Source of the DNA: a virus
Lineage: Duplodnaviria; Caudoviricetes
Virus record (IMG/VR): IMGVR_UViG_3300038345_000144
Reading direction: 5' to 3' (one strand)
Length of the DNA stretch: 64,000 nt
The notes beneath the pieces were generated by a model. The model saw only the letters and a program-made list of their open reading frames with translations, did no database searches and was not told the origin of the DNA. Position numbers and translations under genes: made by a program. Numbering within the stretch: the stretch's first letter is position 1; each line of letters begins with the position of its first letter. Shown here one piece after another: positions 16,309 to 38,398 of this stretch.

Positions 16309-16332
16309 ATAGTATTTTTCCTTTCATATAAA

Positions 16333-16413
16333 TAAAAACCCCCATTACGAGGAATAATGTGCATAACGATTGCAGTCTCCTACAACGAACGAGAAACCTC
16401 CATATCTGGAGAA
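16333..16413 (-). CRISPR. CRISPR-like mini-array C: 2 degenerate repeats, 1 spacer
   Basis: Plus strand TAAAAACCCCCATTACGAGGAA (16333-16354) and GAGAAACCTCCATATCTGGAGAA (16391-16413), 36 nt apart; same repeat family as arrays A and B. Confidence 0.75.
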
Positions 16414-29740: not shown

Positions 29741-30136
29741 TTACATACCTAATTTAGCCTTAACGCTGTCGGAGAGTTTGAATGTATATTCACAACTCTT
29801 GCTCTTGAGTTGGTTACAAATGAGTTCAGCCTTACCTCTTGGGATAAGCCTCAAATCCTCTTTTGTCATATCTCCGTCCATAAGGATAGTGAAATATACT
29901 CTCGCACCGTTAATCAGTTCAATCTTCTCTAACTGCTCGGTTGTAGCGTCTTCCATAGACTCAAATTTAGCACTCATCATACGACCAATCTGGTTCATAC
30001 ACTTTAAGAACAACATTGAGTAGTTGGTCTTCTCACTCTCCTTTAACTCCTGATTGCAGTCAAAGGCGATAGCAAGTGGATATGTGTCGCTGATGTCTGT
30101 AATGGTGAATTCGTATTGTTTAATTTCCTTTGCCAT
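29741..30136 (-). CDS. hypothetical protein
   Basis: ORF with GGAGG SD. Confidence 0.55.
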   Translation of the reverse strand: MAKEIKQYEFTITDISDTYPLAIAFDCNQELKESEKTNYSMLFLKCMNQIGRMMSAKFESMEDATTEQLEKIELINGARVYFTILMDGDMTKEDLRLIPRGKAELICNQLKSKSCEYTFKLSDSVKAKLGM

Positions 30137-30216
30137 AAAAGCCTCCTAAAAAATAAAGGAATTAGACGAAAGTATCTAATTCCTTTTTTAATTATTTTAT
30201 TATAATTAAATAGCCG

Positions 30217-31539
30217 TTAATTCTTCTTCCTCTTGGGGAGTTGGTAAATGACCTCTTTGTTGTCCTTTCCTCTCCAGTGTCCAGTAACCTGTACGGTCTT
30301 GCCTGACTTATTGATGTAGCGTTCATAACCTCTTACCCAATGTCTTCTCGGTGAAGCGTGGTGGGTCTTGAACACTGTTCCATTAGTCTGCTCATAACGG
30401 ACAATATCCGTGAGAGTTCTGATATAAGGCTCTTCCTTGTCGCTATCAACATTATCTCCGTCAATAACTACAATATCGTTTGTGAGGGTGCTATTACGCT
30501 CACTGGTAGGTGCGTCCTTATAAACAGTCTTTCTGTTTATAAATGCACTAATCGCCTGAAATGCCGAGGACATCAGATACTTGTCGTCCTGACTCAATAC
30601 CCAAGCGGCGGGCAGTCTTAAAGCGGGGGAATTCTTTTCCTCACCAGTGACTTCCTTCATCTTGAACCAACGGACATTCTTATCATTGAAAATCTGCTCT
30701 TCGGAAATATCTCTGTTAATCATTCTGCACATCAACAGTATATCTTCGGGGTACTGTGACGGAATACTCAACTCAACCTTTGACATCTTGGTATAGTTGC
30801 TCTTATAGTCATCATATCCCTGCTTGAGGAACAACTGCTTATAGTGGTGGCAGAATGTGTTTTGAAGGTCGATAAAATTCAACAGCCAAAGATGAGTGCC
30901 GTTCTTTTCGCCCTCTTCTTCTTCAGGAGCCTTATCCAAGTGAATGTACTTACCATTAAAGATAGTCTGCTTGGGAGTGCCTGTAAACGCTCTACAAGGC
31001 TTATGGGTGTTACAAAGTTCGATATAGCACGGAGCATACTCACCATTCATATTGTTCTGAACATTAACCAGTACACACTCAATCTTCAATGCCTCCAACT
31101 GCTTCAGAAGTGGAGTAATGTCCTTCAAATCGACAGGCTGATTTTCAAAGTGCTCAAACGGTACAAGGAATGTAATCGAGTTTGCCCTCTGATAATAAGT
31201 GTCTATATAGTTAATCATATCGGTTGTGTGTTCTGCAAGTTCATACAGCCTCAAATAACGAGGGTCCTGACCACCATACTTGGAAAGAGCCGACTGCATA
31301 TCTTCCCAAATGGTAATCATATTGTCCCTAATCTTGTAGGTGGTGTTAATGTACTCAAAGAAGTCATTACGCTCACTATACAGGATAGGTGTGAGGTCTG
31401 CTTCGTAGAATTCCTTGAGCAAGTCCATATCAAAGTAATGTCTTGCCCAACTATTCTTCTTTAAGAAGTCCATCAGTATCTTGGTGGCTTCGAGATAGTA
31501 TGAAGAATAATCATCTCTTCTGCTGGGAAATGTAATCAT
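30217..31539 (-). CDS. hypothetical protein with C-terminal HASPRRHWVRG..GHWRG basic motif
   Basis: 440 aa ORF with its own promoter and terminator; this type of C-terminal motif occurs in phage proteins. Confidence 0.65.
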   Translation of the reverse strand: MITFPSRRDDYSSYYLEATKILMDFLKKNSWARHYFDMDLLKEFYEADLTPILYSERNDFFEYINTTYKIRDNMITIWEDMQSALSKYGGQDPRYLRLYELAEHTTDMINYIDTYYQRANSITFLVPFEHFENQPVDLKDITPLLKQLEALKIECVLVNVQNNMNGEYAPCYIELCNTHKPCRAFTGTPKQTIFNGKYIHLDKAPEEEEGEKNGTHLWLLNFIDLQNTFCHHYKQLFLKQGYDDYKSNYTKMSKVELSIPSQYPEDILLMCRMINRDISEEQIFNDKNVRWFKMKEVTGEEKNSPALRLPAAWVLSQDDKYLMSSAFQAISAFINRKTVYKDAPTSERNSTLTNDIVVIDGDNVDSDKEEPYIRTLTDIVRYEQTNGTVFKTHHASPRRHWVRGYERYINKSGKTVQVTGHWRGKDNKEVIYQLPKRKKN

Positions 31540-31571
31540 TACACATATCTCCTTTTATTTAATGATAAGTC

Positions 31572-31601
31572 ATTATAGCACAAAAAGATAATAAATGTCA
31601 A
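31572..31601 (-). promoter_or_regulatory. consensus sigmaA promoter
   Basis: TTGACA-18-TATAAT with extended TG, minus strand. Confidence 0.75.
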
Positions 31602-31608
31602 TGATAGT

Positions 31609-31652
31609 ATGTAACCTACAAATCCTCATTTTTAGCAAAATGTAGGTTACAT
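31609..31652. repeat. perfect 12-bp inverted repeat ATGTAACCTACA, 20-bp spacer
   Basis: Arms 31609-31620 and 31641-31652, immediately upstream of the -35. Confidence 0.75.
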
Positions 31653-31786
31653 TTTGTCCCGAAAATTATACAATAATCGTGACAATAAGAAAAGCACCTC
31701 ATTTCTGGGGTGCTTTCTTTCTGTGTCTCTTGTTGCAGACCTTGTAAACAAAGGTCTATATAAAAAGGAGTTGGCTAATCTCCAAT

Positions 31787-32017
31787 TTAGTCTTCTTTTG
31801 ATGATACGATGTCCAAATGAGTAGCCTTTCTCTTCATTGTTGCAATATGCAGACCGAGAATGACCATCCAAAGAACCGCTAATACTGTATTACGGATTGC
31901 TCCTCCAATATCGGCTCCTGAAATATAGCCGAGGATTGCCGCCAGTGAATACAGCGTTACAATAATGCAATCTAAAATAAAAGATACCTTATCCAACTTT
32001 GAAGCGGATGCAAACAT
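31787..32017 (-). CDS. small two-TM membrane protein
   Basis: Start MFASAS after AAAGGAG; two hydrophobic helices. Confidence 0.65.
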   Translation of the reverse strand: MFASASKLDKVSFILDCIIVTLYSLAAILGYISGADIGGAIRNTVLAVLWMVILGLHIATMKRKATHLDIVSSKED

Positions 32018-32113
32018 AACTTTTTTATCTCCTTTCGTGATATTGTTTATATTATATTCAAAGAAAATATCGTTGGTCAATAGTGTGGTGACGATTTTTT
32101 GTAAAATTTGAGT

Positions 32114-32176
32114 ATGACCAAATAAATGACTAAATAATGACCCAATAAATGACCCAATAAAATTTATGATGATGAC
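32114..32176. repeat. ATGAC(C/T)(C/A)AATAA-type repeats, 11-12-bp period
   Basis: ATGAC at 32114, 32126, 32137, 32149, 32172. Confidence 0.75.
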
Positions 32177-32465
32177 CTTAAAATAAGCAATCATAATAAA
32201 TAATAAAGGCAATAGTTAGTAGGAGGGCAAATAGGGATAAATAAAGAATATATATTATTGAATAGTGTGACATATTGTACTTTTTATTCCAAAAACAGGT
32301 TTAACGATACTTTTTTTAACAAATCGTCAGTTTTAGTATCGTTAACGGCACTTTTACGCAGTTTCAAACAGATTTTCTGTTCAAATCTGATTTTCACTAT
32401 AATCAGGAGTTTCAATACATCGTTAAAACGGTCAATTTTAGTGAAAGTTTAGTTAAAGAATAAAA

Positions 32466-32591
32466 TATAACACCACCGTGTTATAGTAGACATTTTGAGG
32501 GTAAAATAGGCACATATCACCGACATTTTGAGGGTACACTACATTACTCCACATTACGCTAAATGGTAATGTAAGGTAATGATTTAGCGTA
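32466..32591. repeat. palindrome + 2 x GACATTTTGAGGGTA + inverted repeat TACGCTAAAT
   Basis: Palindrome 32466-32485; direct repeats at 32489 and 32522 (33 bp apart); IR arms 32555-32564 and 32582-32591. Confidence 0.75.
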
Positions 32592-32639
32592 GTATAAAAA
32601 TACCGCTTGCTTTTTACTCTTTAGTGTATATAATCTAAA

Positions 32640-32732
32640 TATGCTTATAGCACTCCTTCAAGCAAGGTATGTTTTTAGCAAGTTAGGTTGTTATTGGAAG
32701 ACACTGCTTTGCAGAGTGGTGTCTTTTCTTTT
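32640..32732 (+). ncRNA. putative sRNA with anti-SD loop
   Basis: TTGCTT-16-TATAAT promoter (32607-32634); UGCUU/AAGCA hairpin with ACUCCUU in the loop; terminator 32698-32732 with G-U pairs on the plus strand. Confidence 0.55.
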
Positions 32733-32737
32733 GCAAA

Positions 32738-32928
32738 TAAAAACCCCCGTATGTACGGGGAAAATTCATAAACATTTAGTCACCGAATTCCCAATTTCGA
32801 GAAACCTCCGATAACGGAGAAGAGCAACACTGCAATTGCAAGCGTATATAGTGAGTGAAAAACCTCCGTACACGGAGAAAAGGGACCCAGAAATCAAGAA
32901 GATAAGAAAAACCTCCACAACTGGAGAA
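32738..32928 (-). CRISPR. CRISPR-like mini-array A: 4 degenerate repeats, 3 spacers (36, 35, 26 nt)
   Basis: Repeats at 32738-32762, 32799-32821, 32857-32879, 32906-32928; minus-strand consensus TTCTCC-N6-GGAGGTTTTTC; unique spacers. Confidence 0.8.
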
Positions 32929-32935
32929 CAATAGA

Positions 32936-33163
32936 TTAGCCGTTAAGTTCAGCCCACTTTGCCATCATTTCGTCCCTGCGACCATCTGGATAGTTTGATG
33001 TTCCATAATAGAGATTGCCGTCAGCGTCACGATTATCAACTGTTGCTACGACAACATCTGCCTGCAACTTACTGCCATTCTCATTGGGCTTATATGTAGC
33101 ACATCCAATCGCACCTAAAGCAACGATGATAAGGATAATGATTGATATGATTGCCTTCTTCAT
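32936..33163 (-). CDS. small lipoprotein between arrays A and B
   Basis: Signal peptide with AIGC lipobox; SD and promoter upstream. Confidence 0.65.
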   Translation of the reverse strand: MKKAIISIIILIIVALGAIGCATYKPNENGSKLQADVVVATVDNRDADGNLYYGTSNYPDGRRDEMMAKWAELNG

Positions 33164-33430
33164 TTTAAGTTCTCCTCTGTGTGGTAAAAGCCTTTATTTT
33201 CAAGGACTTTAGCCTGTATTTTTCTCTCAAATGTAAGCAAATCATAGCATCTTTTTCTGGTGATGTAAATAGCAAAAACGGCTTTTTTTGCATTTGTAAT
33301 ATTACAATTTTATGTAGTTGTGGTTGCCCTGTTTTGACACCCCAATATATAGTGGTTGAGTGGTAAAAATGCCCTGAATTCAACTTCGTCATTCAACTGT
33401 TTAACTGCATCATTTGGGGCAAAATGACTA

Positions 33431-33522
33431 AATTAAATAACCCCTGCTCACCCGCTTAATAGTGAACAGAGGTTATTAGGAAAGAGGTAATTATTCTATA
33501 TTATGAATAATCGAATAATATA
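33431..33522 (-). ncRNA. putative antisense sRNA S1
   Basis: TTTACA-17-TAGAAT promoter (33528-33556); terminator 33436-33477 with minus-strand G-U pairs; no ORF on the minus strand. Confidence 0.55.
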
Positions 33523-33567
33523 CTCCTATTCTACACTTGTAAACAGCATTTGTAAAGTAAAAATGAT

Positions 33568-33647
33568 AAAAACCCTGTCTATGACTACGACTTCATAAAC
33601 AGGGCGAAAGTAAGGAAAAAAGTTATGAATAATGAATAAGATATATG
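33568..33647 (-). ncRNA. putative antisense sRNA S2 (related to S1)
   Basis: TATAAT at 33653-33658; terminator 33573-33604 + U-tract; shares TTATGAATAAT(C)GAATAA with S1. Confidence 0.55.
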
Positions 33648-33699
33648 CCTCTATTATAAGTGCTTTTTCTTAAAATGGAATAGGCAATTACAGACATAT

Positions 33700-33960
33700 T
33701 AACAATCTCCGTACACGGAGAACTGGAGCAATAGCCTTGAAAAGAGTGCTCTTGCCGACTGAAAAACCTCCTATACAGGAGAAACATACATATACCTTAA
33801 TGGTCTTATTCAGAACGCTGGAAAAACCTCCAAACTGGAGAATAAACCCGAAGTCACTGACCACATATTTAGAGTCTTGAAAAACCCCCATAACGAGGAA
33901 CCATTGTTAATCCAACAACTGACCGTGTTGTTCTTGAGAAACCTCACAAGGCTGTGAGAA
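33700..33960 (-). CRISPR. CRISPR-like mini-array B: 5 degenerate repeats, 4 spacers (38, 37, 36, 35 nt)
   Basis: Repeats at 33700-33722, 33761-33783, 33821-33842, 33879-33900, 33936-33960; period 57-61. Confidence 0.85.
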
Positions 33961-34049
33961 TGTTCTGATGAAATTCAAAACAATCAATGTTCATCTATCA
34001 TTATTAAATAGCCGTTAATAGAAAAGAGGCACTTGTGTACCTCTTTTGA

Positions 34050-34205
34050 TTACTTCTGATTGGCTTTGAGTCCCTTTATCTCTTCTTCAAGTTCCTTGAT
34101 GATACCTACATAGTATTTCCACTGCCAGTGTACGATACATAAAGCGGCGATGCCCTCGATGGTCATTAAGATTAAAAATACATCACCAATATTAAGTTCT
34201 GTCAT
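34050..34205 (-). CDS. small TM + coiled-coil protein (51 aa, not in the ORF track)
   Basis: MTELNIGDVFLILMTIEGIAALC... with GGAGG SD, followed by a terminator. Confidence 0.6.
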   Translation of the reverse strand: MTELNIGDVFLILMTIEGIAALCIVHWQWKYYVGIIKELEEEIKGLKANQK

Positions 34206-34218
34206 TGTTTTTTCCTCC

Positions 34219-34758
34219 TTATGATAAGTTATACTTGGCTAACAACTTCTTCAGTTCGTTTTCTCTGCTCTTGAGTTCTGACTTCTCCCACTTGAGATTA
34301 CTCTTTGCTGTCTGTAAATCCTGTTCAGCCTTTTCTACATTCTTCTTCGTTCTGGCAATACGCTCTCTAACACGCAGGATTTCCTCGTACTTATAGAGAG
34401 TGGGCTTGTAGTCCTCGTCAGGCTCGCTGTAATTACGCTCTGGTGTGTCAAGGTAATTAGCAAAGTCAAACTTCGTAGGCTCGCCTACACGCTCATTAAC
34501 GAAGCCACGGAACGAACCCATTAAAGAAAACAGCGTCGGGTCATTCGGGTAGGGACAAGCATACAGATACTTGTGTGTCTTACGGCTCTCAACACAATAT
34601 AACCATAATACCTCGTCATCAAACGGTACAGGATGTATCTTGGTGTGTCCGATAATATAACCGCACTTTCTTACTACCTTAAATGCAGGGGTCTCATCTA
34701 TCTTGTCCTCTGTAAAAGGTGTTGTAATTACCTCAAAAATTGCCTCATTGATTGTCAT
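34219..34758 (-). CDS. hypothetical protein with C-terminal coiled coil
   Basis: ORF with SD. Confidence 0.6.
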   Translation of the reverse strand: MTINEAIFEVITTPFTEDKIDETPAFKVVRKCGYIIGHTKIHPVPFDDEVLWLYCVESRKTHKYLYACPYPNDPTLFSLMGSFRGFVNERVGEPTKFDFANYLDTPERNYSEPDEDYKPTLYKYEEILRVRERIARTKKNVEKAEQDLQTAKSNLKWEKSELKSRENELKKLLAKYNLS

Positions 34759-34924
34759 TTTTAGTGTCCTCCTTGACTGTTTGTGGCTTCAGTGTAGCAA
34801 CCCTAAAATCGCTTGTAAAGGGCAAAATACCCCTATACCTAAACCCTGTTAGTAAATCGTTGAAATTCGTTCTGGACTAACAAAATATTTGTATGGAATT
34901 CCCATCTGGACCCTTAAAAAATGA

Positions 34925-35022
34925 CAAAAGAAAAGAGGTGCTTCTTCAGCACCCCTTTCTCTATAATGGAGGTATTCGTGAATAAATATTCACAAATCGT
35001 AGGGTCGTTCACTCCCTACATA
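34925..35022 (-). ncRNA. putative structured sRNA S3 with anti-SD ACCUCC
   Basis: Extended -10 TGtTATAAT (35028-35036), two hairpins, terminator 34929-34960. Confidence 0.5.
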
Positions 35023-35037
35023 TATGATTATAACACA

Positions 35038-35079
35038 TTTAACTCGTTTTTAACTCATCATTTAACTCGTTTTTAACTC
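35038..35079. repeat. 4 x TTTAACTC, 11-12-bp period
   Basis: Copies at 35038, 35049, 35061, 35072. Confidence 0.8.
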
Positions 35080-35119
35080 AATCACTTCCATTTTAATTCG
35101 CTCATCGAATTAAACAGCA

Positions 35120-35518
35120 TTACTCCTTGCAATAGTCTTGAAAGGTAATAGCGTGGTCTATGGTCAATAGGTAGGTAGCGTTTCTTTGTAATGTAGCCAT
35201 CTCCTCATAAAGGTACTGGTGCAATAGTTTCTTTGCTAACTCGTCATTTCGTTCCACCAATACTACTTCATCATTTTCTGGTTCCTCAAAATTAACCCTT
35301 AATGTAGAGATTGTAGGGTTGTTTTCAAAGTTTTTATTAACTATATGAACGGTCTTTCCCAAAGATACAGCATTATATATATCTGTGGGCATCTGCTCAA
35401 ATTTAGCATACCAACACTCTACAATAAAAAGGTGCTTGAGAGCATAAAGGTATCGGTAACAGGTTTGATTGTGTTCCTTTGCTACCTCGGTTACAATGTC
35501 ACCATACGATTTACTCAT
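35120..35518 (-). CDS. hypothetical protein, paralog of 39928-40386
   Basis: YG....EVAK.HNQ.CY and D.LAKK motifs shared. Confidence 0.65.
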   Translation of the reverse strand: MSKSYGDIVTEVAKEHNQTCYRYLYALKHLFIVECWYAKFEQMPTDIYNAVSLGKTVHIVNKNFENNPTISTLRVNFEEPENDEVVLVERNDELAKKLLHQYLYEEMATLQRNATYLLTIDHAITFQDYCKE

Positions 35519-35539
35519 AATCATTACTTCCTTTCTAAT

Positions 35540-35655
35540 AAAAAACTCCCCCACCCAAATCAACTAAAATTAGGTGAGGGAGTTCAATTAAGTTGTTATA
35601 TCAATGATAACTTATCCTCGGAGGTGTTGTAAATATGCAAAAAACATTTATTACC
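35540..35655 (-). ncRNA. putative antisense sRNA S4
   Basis: TATAAT at 35661-35666 (weak -35); terminator 35544-35584; body is the reverse complement of GGAGGTG-N8-ATGCAAAAAACA. Confidence 0.45.
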
Positions 35656-35769
35656 ACCGTATTATACTTTTTTAGTATCATACAACTGGATTATTAAAGG
35701 GTATTAAATGAAGAAAGTGCCTACCCGAATGGATAAGCACTCTCTTGTAGAAAGGAGATAATAGGTCAA

Positions 35770-36912
35770 TTAGATAACTGGATAATCTTTTGCTTCCTGC
35801 TTGGTCATAAAGAAATGAATTCCTGTTGAACATTCATTCCATCGGTTCGTATTAAAGTCGGGTTCACCAAACGCCAAACTTTTAACGGTTTTTCCAACAG
35901 TATAGATAAAGGTATCGTTATACCAAGCCCTAACCTTAATATCAGCAGGCAATTTGTTATCATTCATATCATAGAACCCAAGCACCTTAACAGCACTGGC
36001 TCTGCATTTTCTTCCCGTACCCGAACTTCTCTTGGCATTGGCGGGAATTTGAAGTTTAACTAATACTCCCTCTTTAGTGTGGCTATCCTTAACCCAGATT
36101 GCTTTTTTCCAAGCGACAAAAGCACCCTCTTCAGGACATATCATATGGTACTTAATATTAGTAACATTGTCTCCAATGCAAGCATTATCAAAGTTAGCAT
36201 CTTCCATATGTCCACAATCTATGTCAGCAAAAAACGCTTTAGTTAAGTTAGCACTGAAGAATTGTGAGGAAGTGATTATTGTCTTTCTAAATTGTGCTTC
36301 ACTTAAATTTGCCTCTATAAAATGACAACTTTTTAGGTTAGCATAATTAAAGACCGCCTTACTGCAATTAGCCTGATAGAATGAACAACATTCAAACACG
36401 GTCTGTTCCCGTGAAGAAATAAAGCAATCTATTGACATCATATTTGCCCCGCTAAATTTGACATCAAAAAGGTGGCATCCCCAAAATTTGGTAAAACCAC
36501 AAAAAGCATAGTTGAATTCACACAACCATATTTTAGTGGCTTCAAAGTGAGCGTCTGTAAATATAGCATATTTGAATATACACTTGTTAATCACACATTC
36601 TTCAAATGACGCACAGGTAAACATACAGCCATAAAACCAGCAAGAGTCATTAAAAACTGTCTGAACAAATCTTGCTTTATTAAAAATTACCTGGTCAAGT
36701 TTACAGTGAATAAATTTACAGTTCTCAAACAAACTGTAACTTAAATCTCGATAGTCTCTAAAATCAATATGCTCAAACACTTGATTTTTGAATGTGGCTC
36801 TTTTACCACCTTTTTCGTTATTCAACCACTTCTTATGGTTTTTAAGCACGGTGGCTAATGATTTCTTATCAATCGTTATATCTTCTGGTATATAATAAAA
36901 ATCATCACTCAT
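35770..36912 (-). CDS. pentapeptide repeat protein with C-terminal DUF5758-like domain
   Basis: Long pentapeptide tract; CPEEGAFVAWKK, RKCRAS, ECSTGIHFF. Confidence 0.88.
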   Translation of the reverse strand: MSDDFYYIPEDITIDKKSLATVLKNHKKWLNNEKGGKRATFKNQVFEHIDFRDYRDLSYSLFENCKFIHCKLDQVIFNKARFVQTVFNDSCWFYGCMFTCASFEECVINKCIFKYAIFTDAHFEATKIWLCEFNYAFCGFTKFWGCHLFDVKFSGANMMSIDCFISSREQTVFECCSFYQANCSKAVFNYANLKSCHFIEANLSEAQFRKTIITSSQFFSANLTKAFFADIDCGHMEDANFDNACIGDNVTNIKYHMICPEEGAFVAWKKAIWVKDSHTKEGVLVKLQIPANAKRSSGTGRKCRASAVKVLGFYDMNDNKLPADIKVRAWYNDTFIYTVGKTVKSLAFGEPDFNTNRWNECSTGIHFFMTKQEAKDYPVI

Positions 36913-37295
36913 TCTTCTTCTCCTTCCTCAAATACGGATTTCCATTCATCACCACAACCAACATAAGCCTTGAATACAACTCTAAAGCCTGCTTCAAGAT
37001 ACTTTTCGGTGATATATTCCATTGTTTTTAGTACATCTTGTGCCTGAACCTTTGCGAGACCAATGTTTCTTTCATCAACAGTTTCAAAAGTGTACCAACC
37101 AGCGTTTTTATCATCATAATTAACTTCATAGAGAATAGGCTCAAGGCTCTTTATTCTCTTCAGTTCGTCGCATACTTTAGTATATTCTTCACACAACTGG
37201 GTTACTGCCTGTTTTAATTCTGTAAAGCCAGTATCGTTGTCTGACTTGTCCTGTTCTTTTTTTCTTATTTCGGCTAAAATGGTGGCTACTCCCAT
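36909..37295 (-). CDS. hypothetical protein
   Basis: ORF with SD and promoter. Confidence 0.6.
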   Translation of the reverse strand: MGVATILAEIRKKEQDKSDNDTGFTELKQAVTQLCEEYTKVCDELKRIKSLEPILYEVNYDDKNAGWYTFETVDERNIGLAKVQAQDVLKTMEYITEKYLEAGFRVVFKAYVGCGDEWKSVFEEGEEE

Positions 37296-37417
37296 AAAAG
37301 TTCTCCTTTTTGTAATAATATCATTATCATACCAGTATATTTATAAACTTGTAAATAGCGAAAATAAAAATCCCACTACCTAATATAAGATAGCGGGATT
37401 TATTAAAGCGTATATTA

Positions 37418-38398
37418 TTACTCCTTTTTCGGAGGTCGGTCTATTCTCAAACCACATTCAGGGCAAAATTTCAAATCCTTAATGATACGAACAAGGCTTT
37501 TAGGAACTTTCCAGCCACAAGCAAAACACTGTAAGCCACCGTCTTCTTGTTCTATCAATTCCGTCTTTGGCTCGTTATTCATACGATTGTGCTTAATTAC
37601 CGAGCATACCGTAACGGTTCCACCTCGTAACTGGAAACCATATACATCTCGTATATCCCCACAAGAGCATTTACAACGCCACATATCAAAATGCCTGCCG
37701 TTTTCCATTGTCTTATCATCAATTTGCTGGATAACCGTTAACTCGCCATAGGTCTGTCCTACAAAGGTTTTATTTACGAGTCTTGGGTGGCGATTAGTAA
37801 AATAATCAGGGTGATTTCCTTTATTGCCACAATATGTAATTATAGTATCGTTAGGGTGGGTTAAATAACCCAGACTCTTTTGACAGGTATTACCACAGGA
37901 ACACTTACAATTCCATCGTTTTGTTTTCTCGTCAAAATCAAGAACCGTAAGTTCTCCAACCTTCAAACCTGATAAATTGTAACGAGGTTTTCTTTTTGCT
38001 ATATTACAGCACTTAACACACCCCGTAGACTGTCCTTTGAGTAGATTGTGATAAACTATATCACCCTCATTACCGCACTCACATTTACAGTGGCACATTC
38101 TGTATAATTGAGACTTATATTGTTTATCCCACATATACTGAACCGTCCACTTACCAAACTTCTTGCCCGTAAGGTCTTCAGCCTTTTTACGGGACTTTAT
38201 GCCCATACAGTCGTTACAGCCAGTTTTCTTACCTTCCACCAATAACTGTGTGTTGACAATTACCTCATTACCACAATCACACACGCAACGCCATTTAGAC
38301 GGAACCTGCTTGTTATTGGCTCGGCTACTTGGTATAAACTCGATAGGCGTAAGTTTACCAAATTTCTCATTTCTTAAATCTCTTTGAATTCTTCCCAT
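37418..38398 (-). CDS. protein with four Cys-rich modules of the type found in phage HNH/AP2 homing-endonuclease N-termini, plus a C-terminal zinc ribbon
   Basis: 4 x (L.G.KFG.LT..W.C.C.CG) units; no HNH motif seen. Confidence 0.7.
   Translation of the reverse strand: MGRIQRDLRNEKFGKLTPIEFIPSSRANNKQVPSKWRCVCDCGNEVIVNTQLLVEGKKTGCNDCMGIKSRKKAEDLTGKKFGKWTVQYMWDKQYKSQLYRMCHCKCECGNEGDIVYHNLLKGQSTGCVKCCNIAKRKPRYNLSGLKVGELTVLDFDEKTKRWNCKCSCGNTCQKSLGYLTHPNDTIITYCGNKGNHPDYFTNRHPRLVNKTFVGQTYGELTVIQQIDDKTMENGRHFDMWRCKCSCGDIRDVYGFQLRGGTVTVCSVIKHNRMNNEPKTELIEQEDGGLQCFACGWKVPKSLVRIIKDLKFCPECGLRIDRPPKKE

Follow-up and report, generated by a model that had tools for sequence, protein, structure and literature searches.

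Read on the minus strand, the 38 bases at positions 33723-33760 of the window (the whole 64,000-nucleotide stretch of phage DNA that was analyzed) spell, after one base, V-G-K-S-T-L-F-K-A-I-A-P, and the question raised by this locus is whether so short a P-loop reading is accidental, what it does where it lies and whose gene it matches. The segment is a spacer bounded by two members of one hairpin repeat family, and it is the last spacer of array B (Table 1). An earlier note, made from the sequence of the window, had described it as a minus-strand array spacer encoding VGKSTLFKAI, and the sequence and the flanking repeats agree with that description. Frame 0 of VGKSTLFKAIA(P) begins at the ninth base past the hairpin, that is, directly after the 8-nt handle GUUUUUCA. 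Guide positions 22-24 hold AAG, the codon for Lys, and the K/N difference is a single base at position 24, as the note had also said.

When random 37-mers were read in any of six frames, a relaxed Walker-A-plus-helix pattern was found in only 1-3 per 200,000 (~1e-5); bare GK[ST] was found in ~1.6% of them in the same simulation. Because the longer pattern is so rare, the reading is not put down to chance, and this supports the segment as a fragment or sense copy of P-loop NTPase coding sequence. The 32-nt guide is unchanged in contigs of four other runs, and the sole spacer change lies at 33725, in the linker; this linker, which we take to correspond to the 5 nt that precede the stem in the E. 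coli type I-E repeat, is probably not derived from the target.

Table 1 Features of the arrays and guides (window positions unless a relative is named)
Feature	Position	Strand	Remarks
Array B	33699-33960	minus	Five hairpin repeats, four guides of 34-37 nt; 59-nt whole-unit deletion in run X5
Target guide, 32 nt, fourth and last of array B	33728-33759	minus	Frame 0 reads VGKSTLFKAIA
Linker, 5 nt, from guide to TT and hairpin of next repeat	33723-33727	minus	33725 G>T in 4/4 other runs
Repeat B2	33760-33783	minus	TT, 5-bp hairpin with 4-nt loop (33768-33781), 8-nt handle GUUUUUCA (33760-33767)
Terminal repeat B1	33699-33722	minus	Intact hairpin (33707-33720), degenerate handle AUUGUUAA
Guide B_s3, adjoining the target guide	33788-33819	minus	Antisense to coding motif YLNGLIQ; homologous guides in related phages
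YLNGLIQ guide family	Window 33788-33819; G001 36058-36089, 246158-246189; L060 9960-9991; L064 10989-11020		
Array A	32737-32928	minus	Four repeats, three guides; 49-nt unit deletion in runs X3, X5, X14
Array C	16332-16413	minus	Two repeats, one guide (16358-16389) reading FVVGDCNRYAH, the "dnaA guide" of the earlier note

On the minus strand the repeat unit consists of TT, a G+C hairpin of 5-6 bp, and GTTTTTC with one variable base. Repeats are spaced 58-61 nt apart in the window, where the hairpin motif occurs nine times vs 1.8 expected. The 26 units of the window and of a related phage, G001, have 16 different stems with 143 pairs, all but two of which (141) are intact; at the fifth pair A-T, T-A, G-C and C-G all occur. 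Eight pairs are G-U and would be A-C if read on the opposite strand, which fixes the window minus strand, also the strand of the cas genes, as the one transcribed, and shows selection on the RNA hairpin made from it. Two other interpretations of these elements, Cas12-like 5′ handles on the plus strand and RNA anti-CRISPR decoys, were set aside, as the G-U pairs and cas6e establish the strand and the type.

Whole repeat-spacer units are absent in other strains (window 32856-32906, 49 nt, and 33774-33834, 59 nt). In run X2 the contigs end within 32798-32828, a break caused by the recurrence of this repeat in further arrays. We also note a conserved element of ~24 nt, whose minus strand begins ATTAACGGCTAT, at window 30198-30221, 33996-34019 and about 32930-32945, that is, upstream of arrays A and B and after a 440-aa ORF; a role as a promoter of the phage or as a signal for processing is possible. 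The window gave no matches in Rfam and tRNA scans.

The genes of the window lie nearly all on the minus strand and include those for ParA-like, SbcC-like, NAD ligase, SNF2 helicase and tail-lysozyme-domain proteins, and the runs that contain it, which belong to 16 studies, are gut metagenomes of bovine and sheep origin. There are no cas genes within the 64 kb. An exact copy of the window's helicase gene is present on Logan contig SRR1725612_2579 (184,946 bp; adding 32,798 to a contig coordinate gives that of the window), and this contig carries cse1, cse2, cas7, cas5, cas6e and cas3 at window-equivalent 171.7-178.7 kb, ~108 kb past the window end. The operon (within our segment L048, contig 131-152 kb) is on the same strand as the arrays. 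It was reached by way of an IMG/VR scan for the repeat motif, which gave G001, then the Cas7 clade of G001, then L046, whose Cas6e is identical to that on SRR1725612_2579. A type I-E NCBIfam model is the top match for each of the six cas proteins; Cas5e and the Cas3 core and HD domains exceed the model cut-off, and the others fall below it and are therefore divergent. No cas1 or cas2 adaptation genes occur within 10 kb of the operon. Since the cas operon is on the same contig, and since the repeat family adjoins cas6e in a relative, the data support array B as a genuine type I-E-style array of a roughly 400-kb rumen phage with its own interference genes. The earlier note's assignment of the spacer to a CRISPR array is thus borne out by an operon on the same contig and strand and by repeats next to cas6e in G001.

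Two further features of the operon deserve mention. The cas6e-cas3 gap (L048 10583-10642) holds two back-to-back repeat-like hairpins, the second of which ends UAUAAACA just before the cas3 start codon; to judge from the real array that occupies the same place in G001 and L060, it looks like a collapsed array, and these hairpins could tie cas3 expression to Cas6e. Immediately upstream of cse1 lies a radical-SAM gene, of 637 aa with intein and LAGLIDADG matches in the window's strain (L048 4010-5923) and of 281 aa in another strain (L047 5079-5924), so that the intein is present or absent between strains.

G001, a 467-kb phage with terminal repeats, has 28 of 81 ORFs in common with the window, at 35-60% identity and in syntenic order. 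It carries the same cas operon, in which cas6e is followed at once by an array of this repeat family and then by a Cas2-Cas3 fusion; no Cas1 is found in G001. Its Cas7 clade comprises ~60 protein clusters, and the contigs that encode them reach 532 kb. Another relative, L063, has an array of ~26 units with the canonical 61-nt period, a classical-looking array of nearly uniform repeats that lies downstream of cas3 (L063 12850-14420, 36% GC), which shows that the repeat family includes ordinary arrays as well as scattered mini-arrays with diverged repeats, such as those of the window. L061 has Cas2/3 plus Cas1, and in some clade members the Cas2-Cas3 fusion is followed by Cas1 (L061 6859-10233; L034 6271-8982); G001 has the fusion without Cas1, and the window's phage has a plain Cas3. 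These gene contents suggest that the clade has lost adaptation stepwise. No close relatives of the window helicase were found in IMG/VR, in cultured phages the identity to it is <30%, and megablast of window 30000-38000 against cultured phages and plasmids gave no match. Array B is absent from the syntenic region of a 48%-identical relative (L059), and no homologue of the target guide was found.

Other guides do have homologues, and these are informative about the guide register. Those of B_s3 occur in G001 (two copies), L060, L064 and an inverted strain variant, and all encode Y-L-N/K-G-L-I-Q/H; the family is kept across phages of 27-38% GC, antisense in the window and sense in the relatives. 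The inverted variant is found in run X14, where 27 nt of B_s3 are inverted in place in a strain 95-99% identical to the window. Two more guide families are common to G001, L060 and L064. In the three variable families, which are homologous guides of related phages and to which the target guide contributes no homologue, 13 of 15 columns at guide positions divisible by six (6n) vary vs 16 of 81 elsewhere (Fisher p=1.2e-6); for residues 1 to 5 modulo six the counts are 5/18, 2/18, 6/15, 2/15 and 1/15, and 6n vs 6n+3, the other half of the third codon positions, gives p=0.010. Type I-E Cascade leaves every sixth guide base unpaired. The variation is thus the signature expected of such a complex, and relaxed constraint at these positions holds in the relatives; it likewise supports the register set by an 8-nt handle. 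The flip-out logic of the earlier note, that unpaired positions are the ones free to vary, is upheld for the relatives' guides. The codon swaps at 6n positions include AAA/AAT (K/N) and CAA/CAT/CAG (Q/H), and because N/K and Q/H swaps occur exactly there in homologous guides, the earlier note has good grounds for its point on K/N: where the guide has Lys at positions 22-24, the target may have Asn.

Sense guides in which a frame can be recognized all start on codon position 1, n=4 being too few for a test. Several guides start with ATG at guide position 1 (L060 6879, 9785 and 9843; L064 10931 and 13778; G001 246099), one of which reads MLVPIGT, as if protospacers began at start codons. Within a guide family the handle base at -1 does not change (it is T, T, A and A in the families) and the other handle bases vary, as if this base travelled with the spacer.

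Taken together, we consider it probable that 33723-33760 is a functional-looking guide for a crRNA of the type I-E system that the phage encodes, and that it copies, in the sense direction, a segment coding for a P-loop. Cas6e of E. coli and Thermus cleaves at the 3′ base of the stem, so that the guide is left with an 8-nt handle and a 3′ hairpin. By analogy with these type I-E systems, the phage Cas6e would cut at the 3′ base of each hairpin and release a crRNA that has GUUUUUCA as its handle, a guide of 32 nt and a 3′ hairpin, which here would be supplied by the terminal repeat B1; the guide length and the 8-nt handle are assumptions, the register of which is backed by the 6n variation. Cascade would load this crRNA and pair it, on the antisense strand, with the part of a gene that encodes the Walker-A/G1 loop VGKSTLF-[K or N]-AI, leaving positions 6, 12, 18, 24 and 30 unpaired. 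As the guide would be a sense-strand copy in codon register, the unpaired bases would fall on third codon positions. Cascade would then recruit Cas3, which would degrade the target DNA.

Which gene this would be was sought at the level of both DNA and protein. With blastn, array B gave only chance-level matches to cultured phages and plasmids, all outside the guide. A guide pattern with every third codon position free, which takes in the model of the earlier note but required GC at positions 31-32 (Ala) and so left out YchF genes reading NAIT, had no matches in IMG/VR and none in 185,579 species genomes. In JGI metagenomes the same pattern found four genes with 6-9 mismatches, namely one Der-like GTPase (nine) and three orthologues of one ABC ATPase (six); with the 6n positions masked, four and three mismatches are left, respectively, always including seed position 3, and codons chosen at random would leave as many. 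In IMG/VR, a scan for the Lys form in all codons, made without the GC requirement at positions 31-32, found two phage SbcC/Rad50-like ATPases with 10-12 mismatches, seed position 3 among them. With 6-12 mismatches and seed position 3 always one of them, none of these nearest peptide-encoding genes is a plausible target.

A PDB search with a 20-aa read-through matched only EngA/Der with NVGKSTLFNAI, at the noise level of E=1.3, and the dnaA-like guide gave a chance histone match at the same level; 40-aa and 30-aa array read-throughs found nothing relevant in protein searches. An EGF-repeat protein matched an array read-through and was set aside as irrelevant, since it aligned to the repeat-derived flank. 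The dnaA-like guide of array C had no match in the 185,579 species genomes or in IMG/VR, and thus offers no target taxon for comparison, and scans with the YLNGLIQ guide found only the arrays themselves. The searches yielded a protospacer for none of the window's eight guides, and there is no cross-targeting among the sequences of the window and its relatives. G001 encodes no DnaA and no MMR_HSR1 GTPase, and neither it nor the window has genes encoding the guide peptides; therefore the targets are not the phages' own genes.

Our single best guess for the owner of the target is a bacterial gene of the YchF/Der GTPase class, and we put it forward tentatively. When compared with the G1/Walker-A motif of YchF, Der (EngA) and HflX, 9 of the 10 guide-encoded residues match, and 10 of 10 if position 24 is ignored; the Pro-Asn that defines these proteins just before the motif lies outside the guide. 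That EngA/Der was the only solved structure matched (E=1.3) also supports this lead, and spacers of huge phages against host sigma-70 and GlyRS genes are a precedent for host-gene targeting (PMC7162821). The earlier note had gone further in naming the motif as the G1 of a TRAFAC GTPase and its source as YchF or Der. That assignment is not sustained by the searches: the scans, in which YchF genes reading NAIT were not covered, found no near-identical protospacer and a Der-like gene with nine mismatches, and the decapeptide of the guide occurs in three P-loop classes, the Der-like GTPase, the ABC transporter ATPase and the SbcC/Rad50-like phage ATPases.

It is quite possible, though short of probable, that the target is instead an ABC or SMC/SbcC/Rad50-type ATPase gene, bacterial or, most probably, borne by a plasmid or another phage in competition with this one, rather than a TRAFAC GTPase gene. 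If Lys is kept, the only IMG/VR genes encoding VGK[ST]T[LF]FKAI are the two phage SbcC/Rad50-like ATPases, and if Asn is allowed, three of the four metagenome matches are the one ABC ATPase, with the fewest mismatches (six, or three after 6n masking). In E. coli type I-E the -1 handle base is copied from the PAM; if it is PAM-derived here as well, its A would suit a preceding Gly codon GGA (NGVGKS) over an Asn codon AAY, which ends in C or T, and would thus speak against the Asn codon that the earlier note expected as an AAY PAM. A survey of jumbo phages, in which 57% of phage-borne spacers matched other jumbo phages (PMC13037316), also favors a phage target. On the other hand, the candidate ATPase genes are only 20-26/32 identical to the guide and are all mismatched at seed position 3, the SbcC orthologues of the clade itself read GEGKTSLI and are unmatched, and Lys at a flip-out position carries no weight. 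With Asn in its place the peptide equals VGKSTLF-N-AI, which we take to be the near-invariant consensus of the YchF/Der G1 loop.

We also note that on three independent metagenome contigs (L005 2-643, L006 5378-6079, L007 379-1098) an ORF has a YchF-like start in its first 20 residues (MKLGIVGLPNVGKSTLFNAI) and the remainder of an ABC transporter ATPase without the usual N-terminal strands; it is an apparent chimera joined at the P-loop, to judge from these reading frames.

A broader version of the host-gene reading is that a clade of giant gut and rumen phages has inherited, not newly acquired, Cascade guides that copy near-invariant motifs of essential bacterial genes (the YchF/Der G1 and DnaA). 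We regard this as doubtful. If it were true, unpaired sixth bases lying on wobble positions would let a fixed guide set cut the chromosome of any strain in the host range, and diverged repeats that keep the Cas6e hairpin would shield the dispersed arrays from recombination.

It seems unlikely that the guide is an inherited relic without a living target, or one that acts solely through partial complementarity by binding or priming without cleavage. The lack of adaptation genes next to the operon and of Cas1 in G001, the diverged repeats and the absence of any target found for the eight window guides would all fit such a relic. Against it, in the guides of the relatives the 6n positions drift and the others are kept, a pattern that selection for pairing should produce, one guide family persists across the 27-38% GC range, and the hairpins that flank the target guide are intact. 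That the hairpins are REP-like elements or weak intrinsic terminators in tandem, with a P-loop reading due to coincidence, is very improbable indeed, for although every unit scores like a terminator, with a hairpin and a T run after it, and no cas gene lies within the window, a cas6e-containing operon is on the same contig, the same repeats directly follow cas6e in relatives, the 58-61 nt period and the 6-nt periodicity of guide variation are present, and the P-loop motif has a chance of only ~1e-5.

The reading as a type I-E guide thus invites comparison with the well-studied systems of E. coli K-12 and Thermus thermophilus. The interference genes are the same and in the same order (cse1, cse2, cas7, cas5, cas6e, cas3), a short G+C hairpin repeat is followed by an 8-nt handle with a period of ~61 nt, and every sixth guide base is unconstrained. 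Unlike those of E. coli and Thermus, this system is phage-borne and has no cas1 or cas2 beside the operon, its arrays are short, dispersed over the genome and distant from the cas genes, and hardly any two repeats are identical, the hairpin being kept by compensatory changes. The handle is GUUUUUCN in the phage vs AUAAACCG in E. coli and Thermus type I-E, and handle and hairpin lie 39 nt apart vs 37 in E. coli.

Like the virus-borne mini-arrays and that of phage ICP1, the arrays of the window are arrays of one to five spacers on a virus, for conflict with other elements or host islands. Vibrio phage ICP1 has a type I-F system with cas1 and cas2/3 and acquires spacers. Most mini-arrays borrow the host's Cas proteins, whereas the window's phage brings its own Cascade and Cas3; virus-borne mini-CRISPR arrays have been modelled (PMC7099407). 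A further comparison is with the CRISPR-Cas systems that huge phages carry (Al-Shayeb et al. 2020, PMC7162821), which share with this one an animal-gut huge phage as carrier, compact arrays and missing adaptation genes, and for which spacers aimed at host transcription and translation genes and at competing phages are reported. Unlike in those phages, the repeats here are too diverged for standard array finders, which will miss such arrays, and guides are common to distantly related phages, sometimes in opposite orientation.

Phage CRISPR systems without adaptation are already known; here, guides common to distantly related phages drift only where Cascade leaves them unpaired, and at least some guides copy conserved protein motifs; nature thus offers evidence of guides that are hard-wired and kept by selection. 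Should essential host genes turn out to be the targets, the system would amount to a CRISPR-based weapon for host shutoff, whose design rules for guides (codon register, flip-out at wobble positions) nature arrived at first. The system combines dispersed arrays, whose repeats are non-identical and yet structurally conserved, with guides that are inherited across divergent phages.
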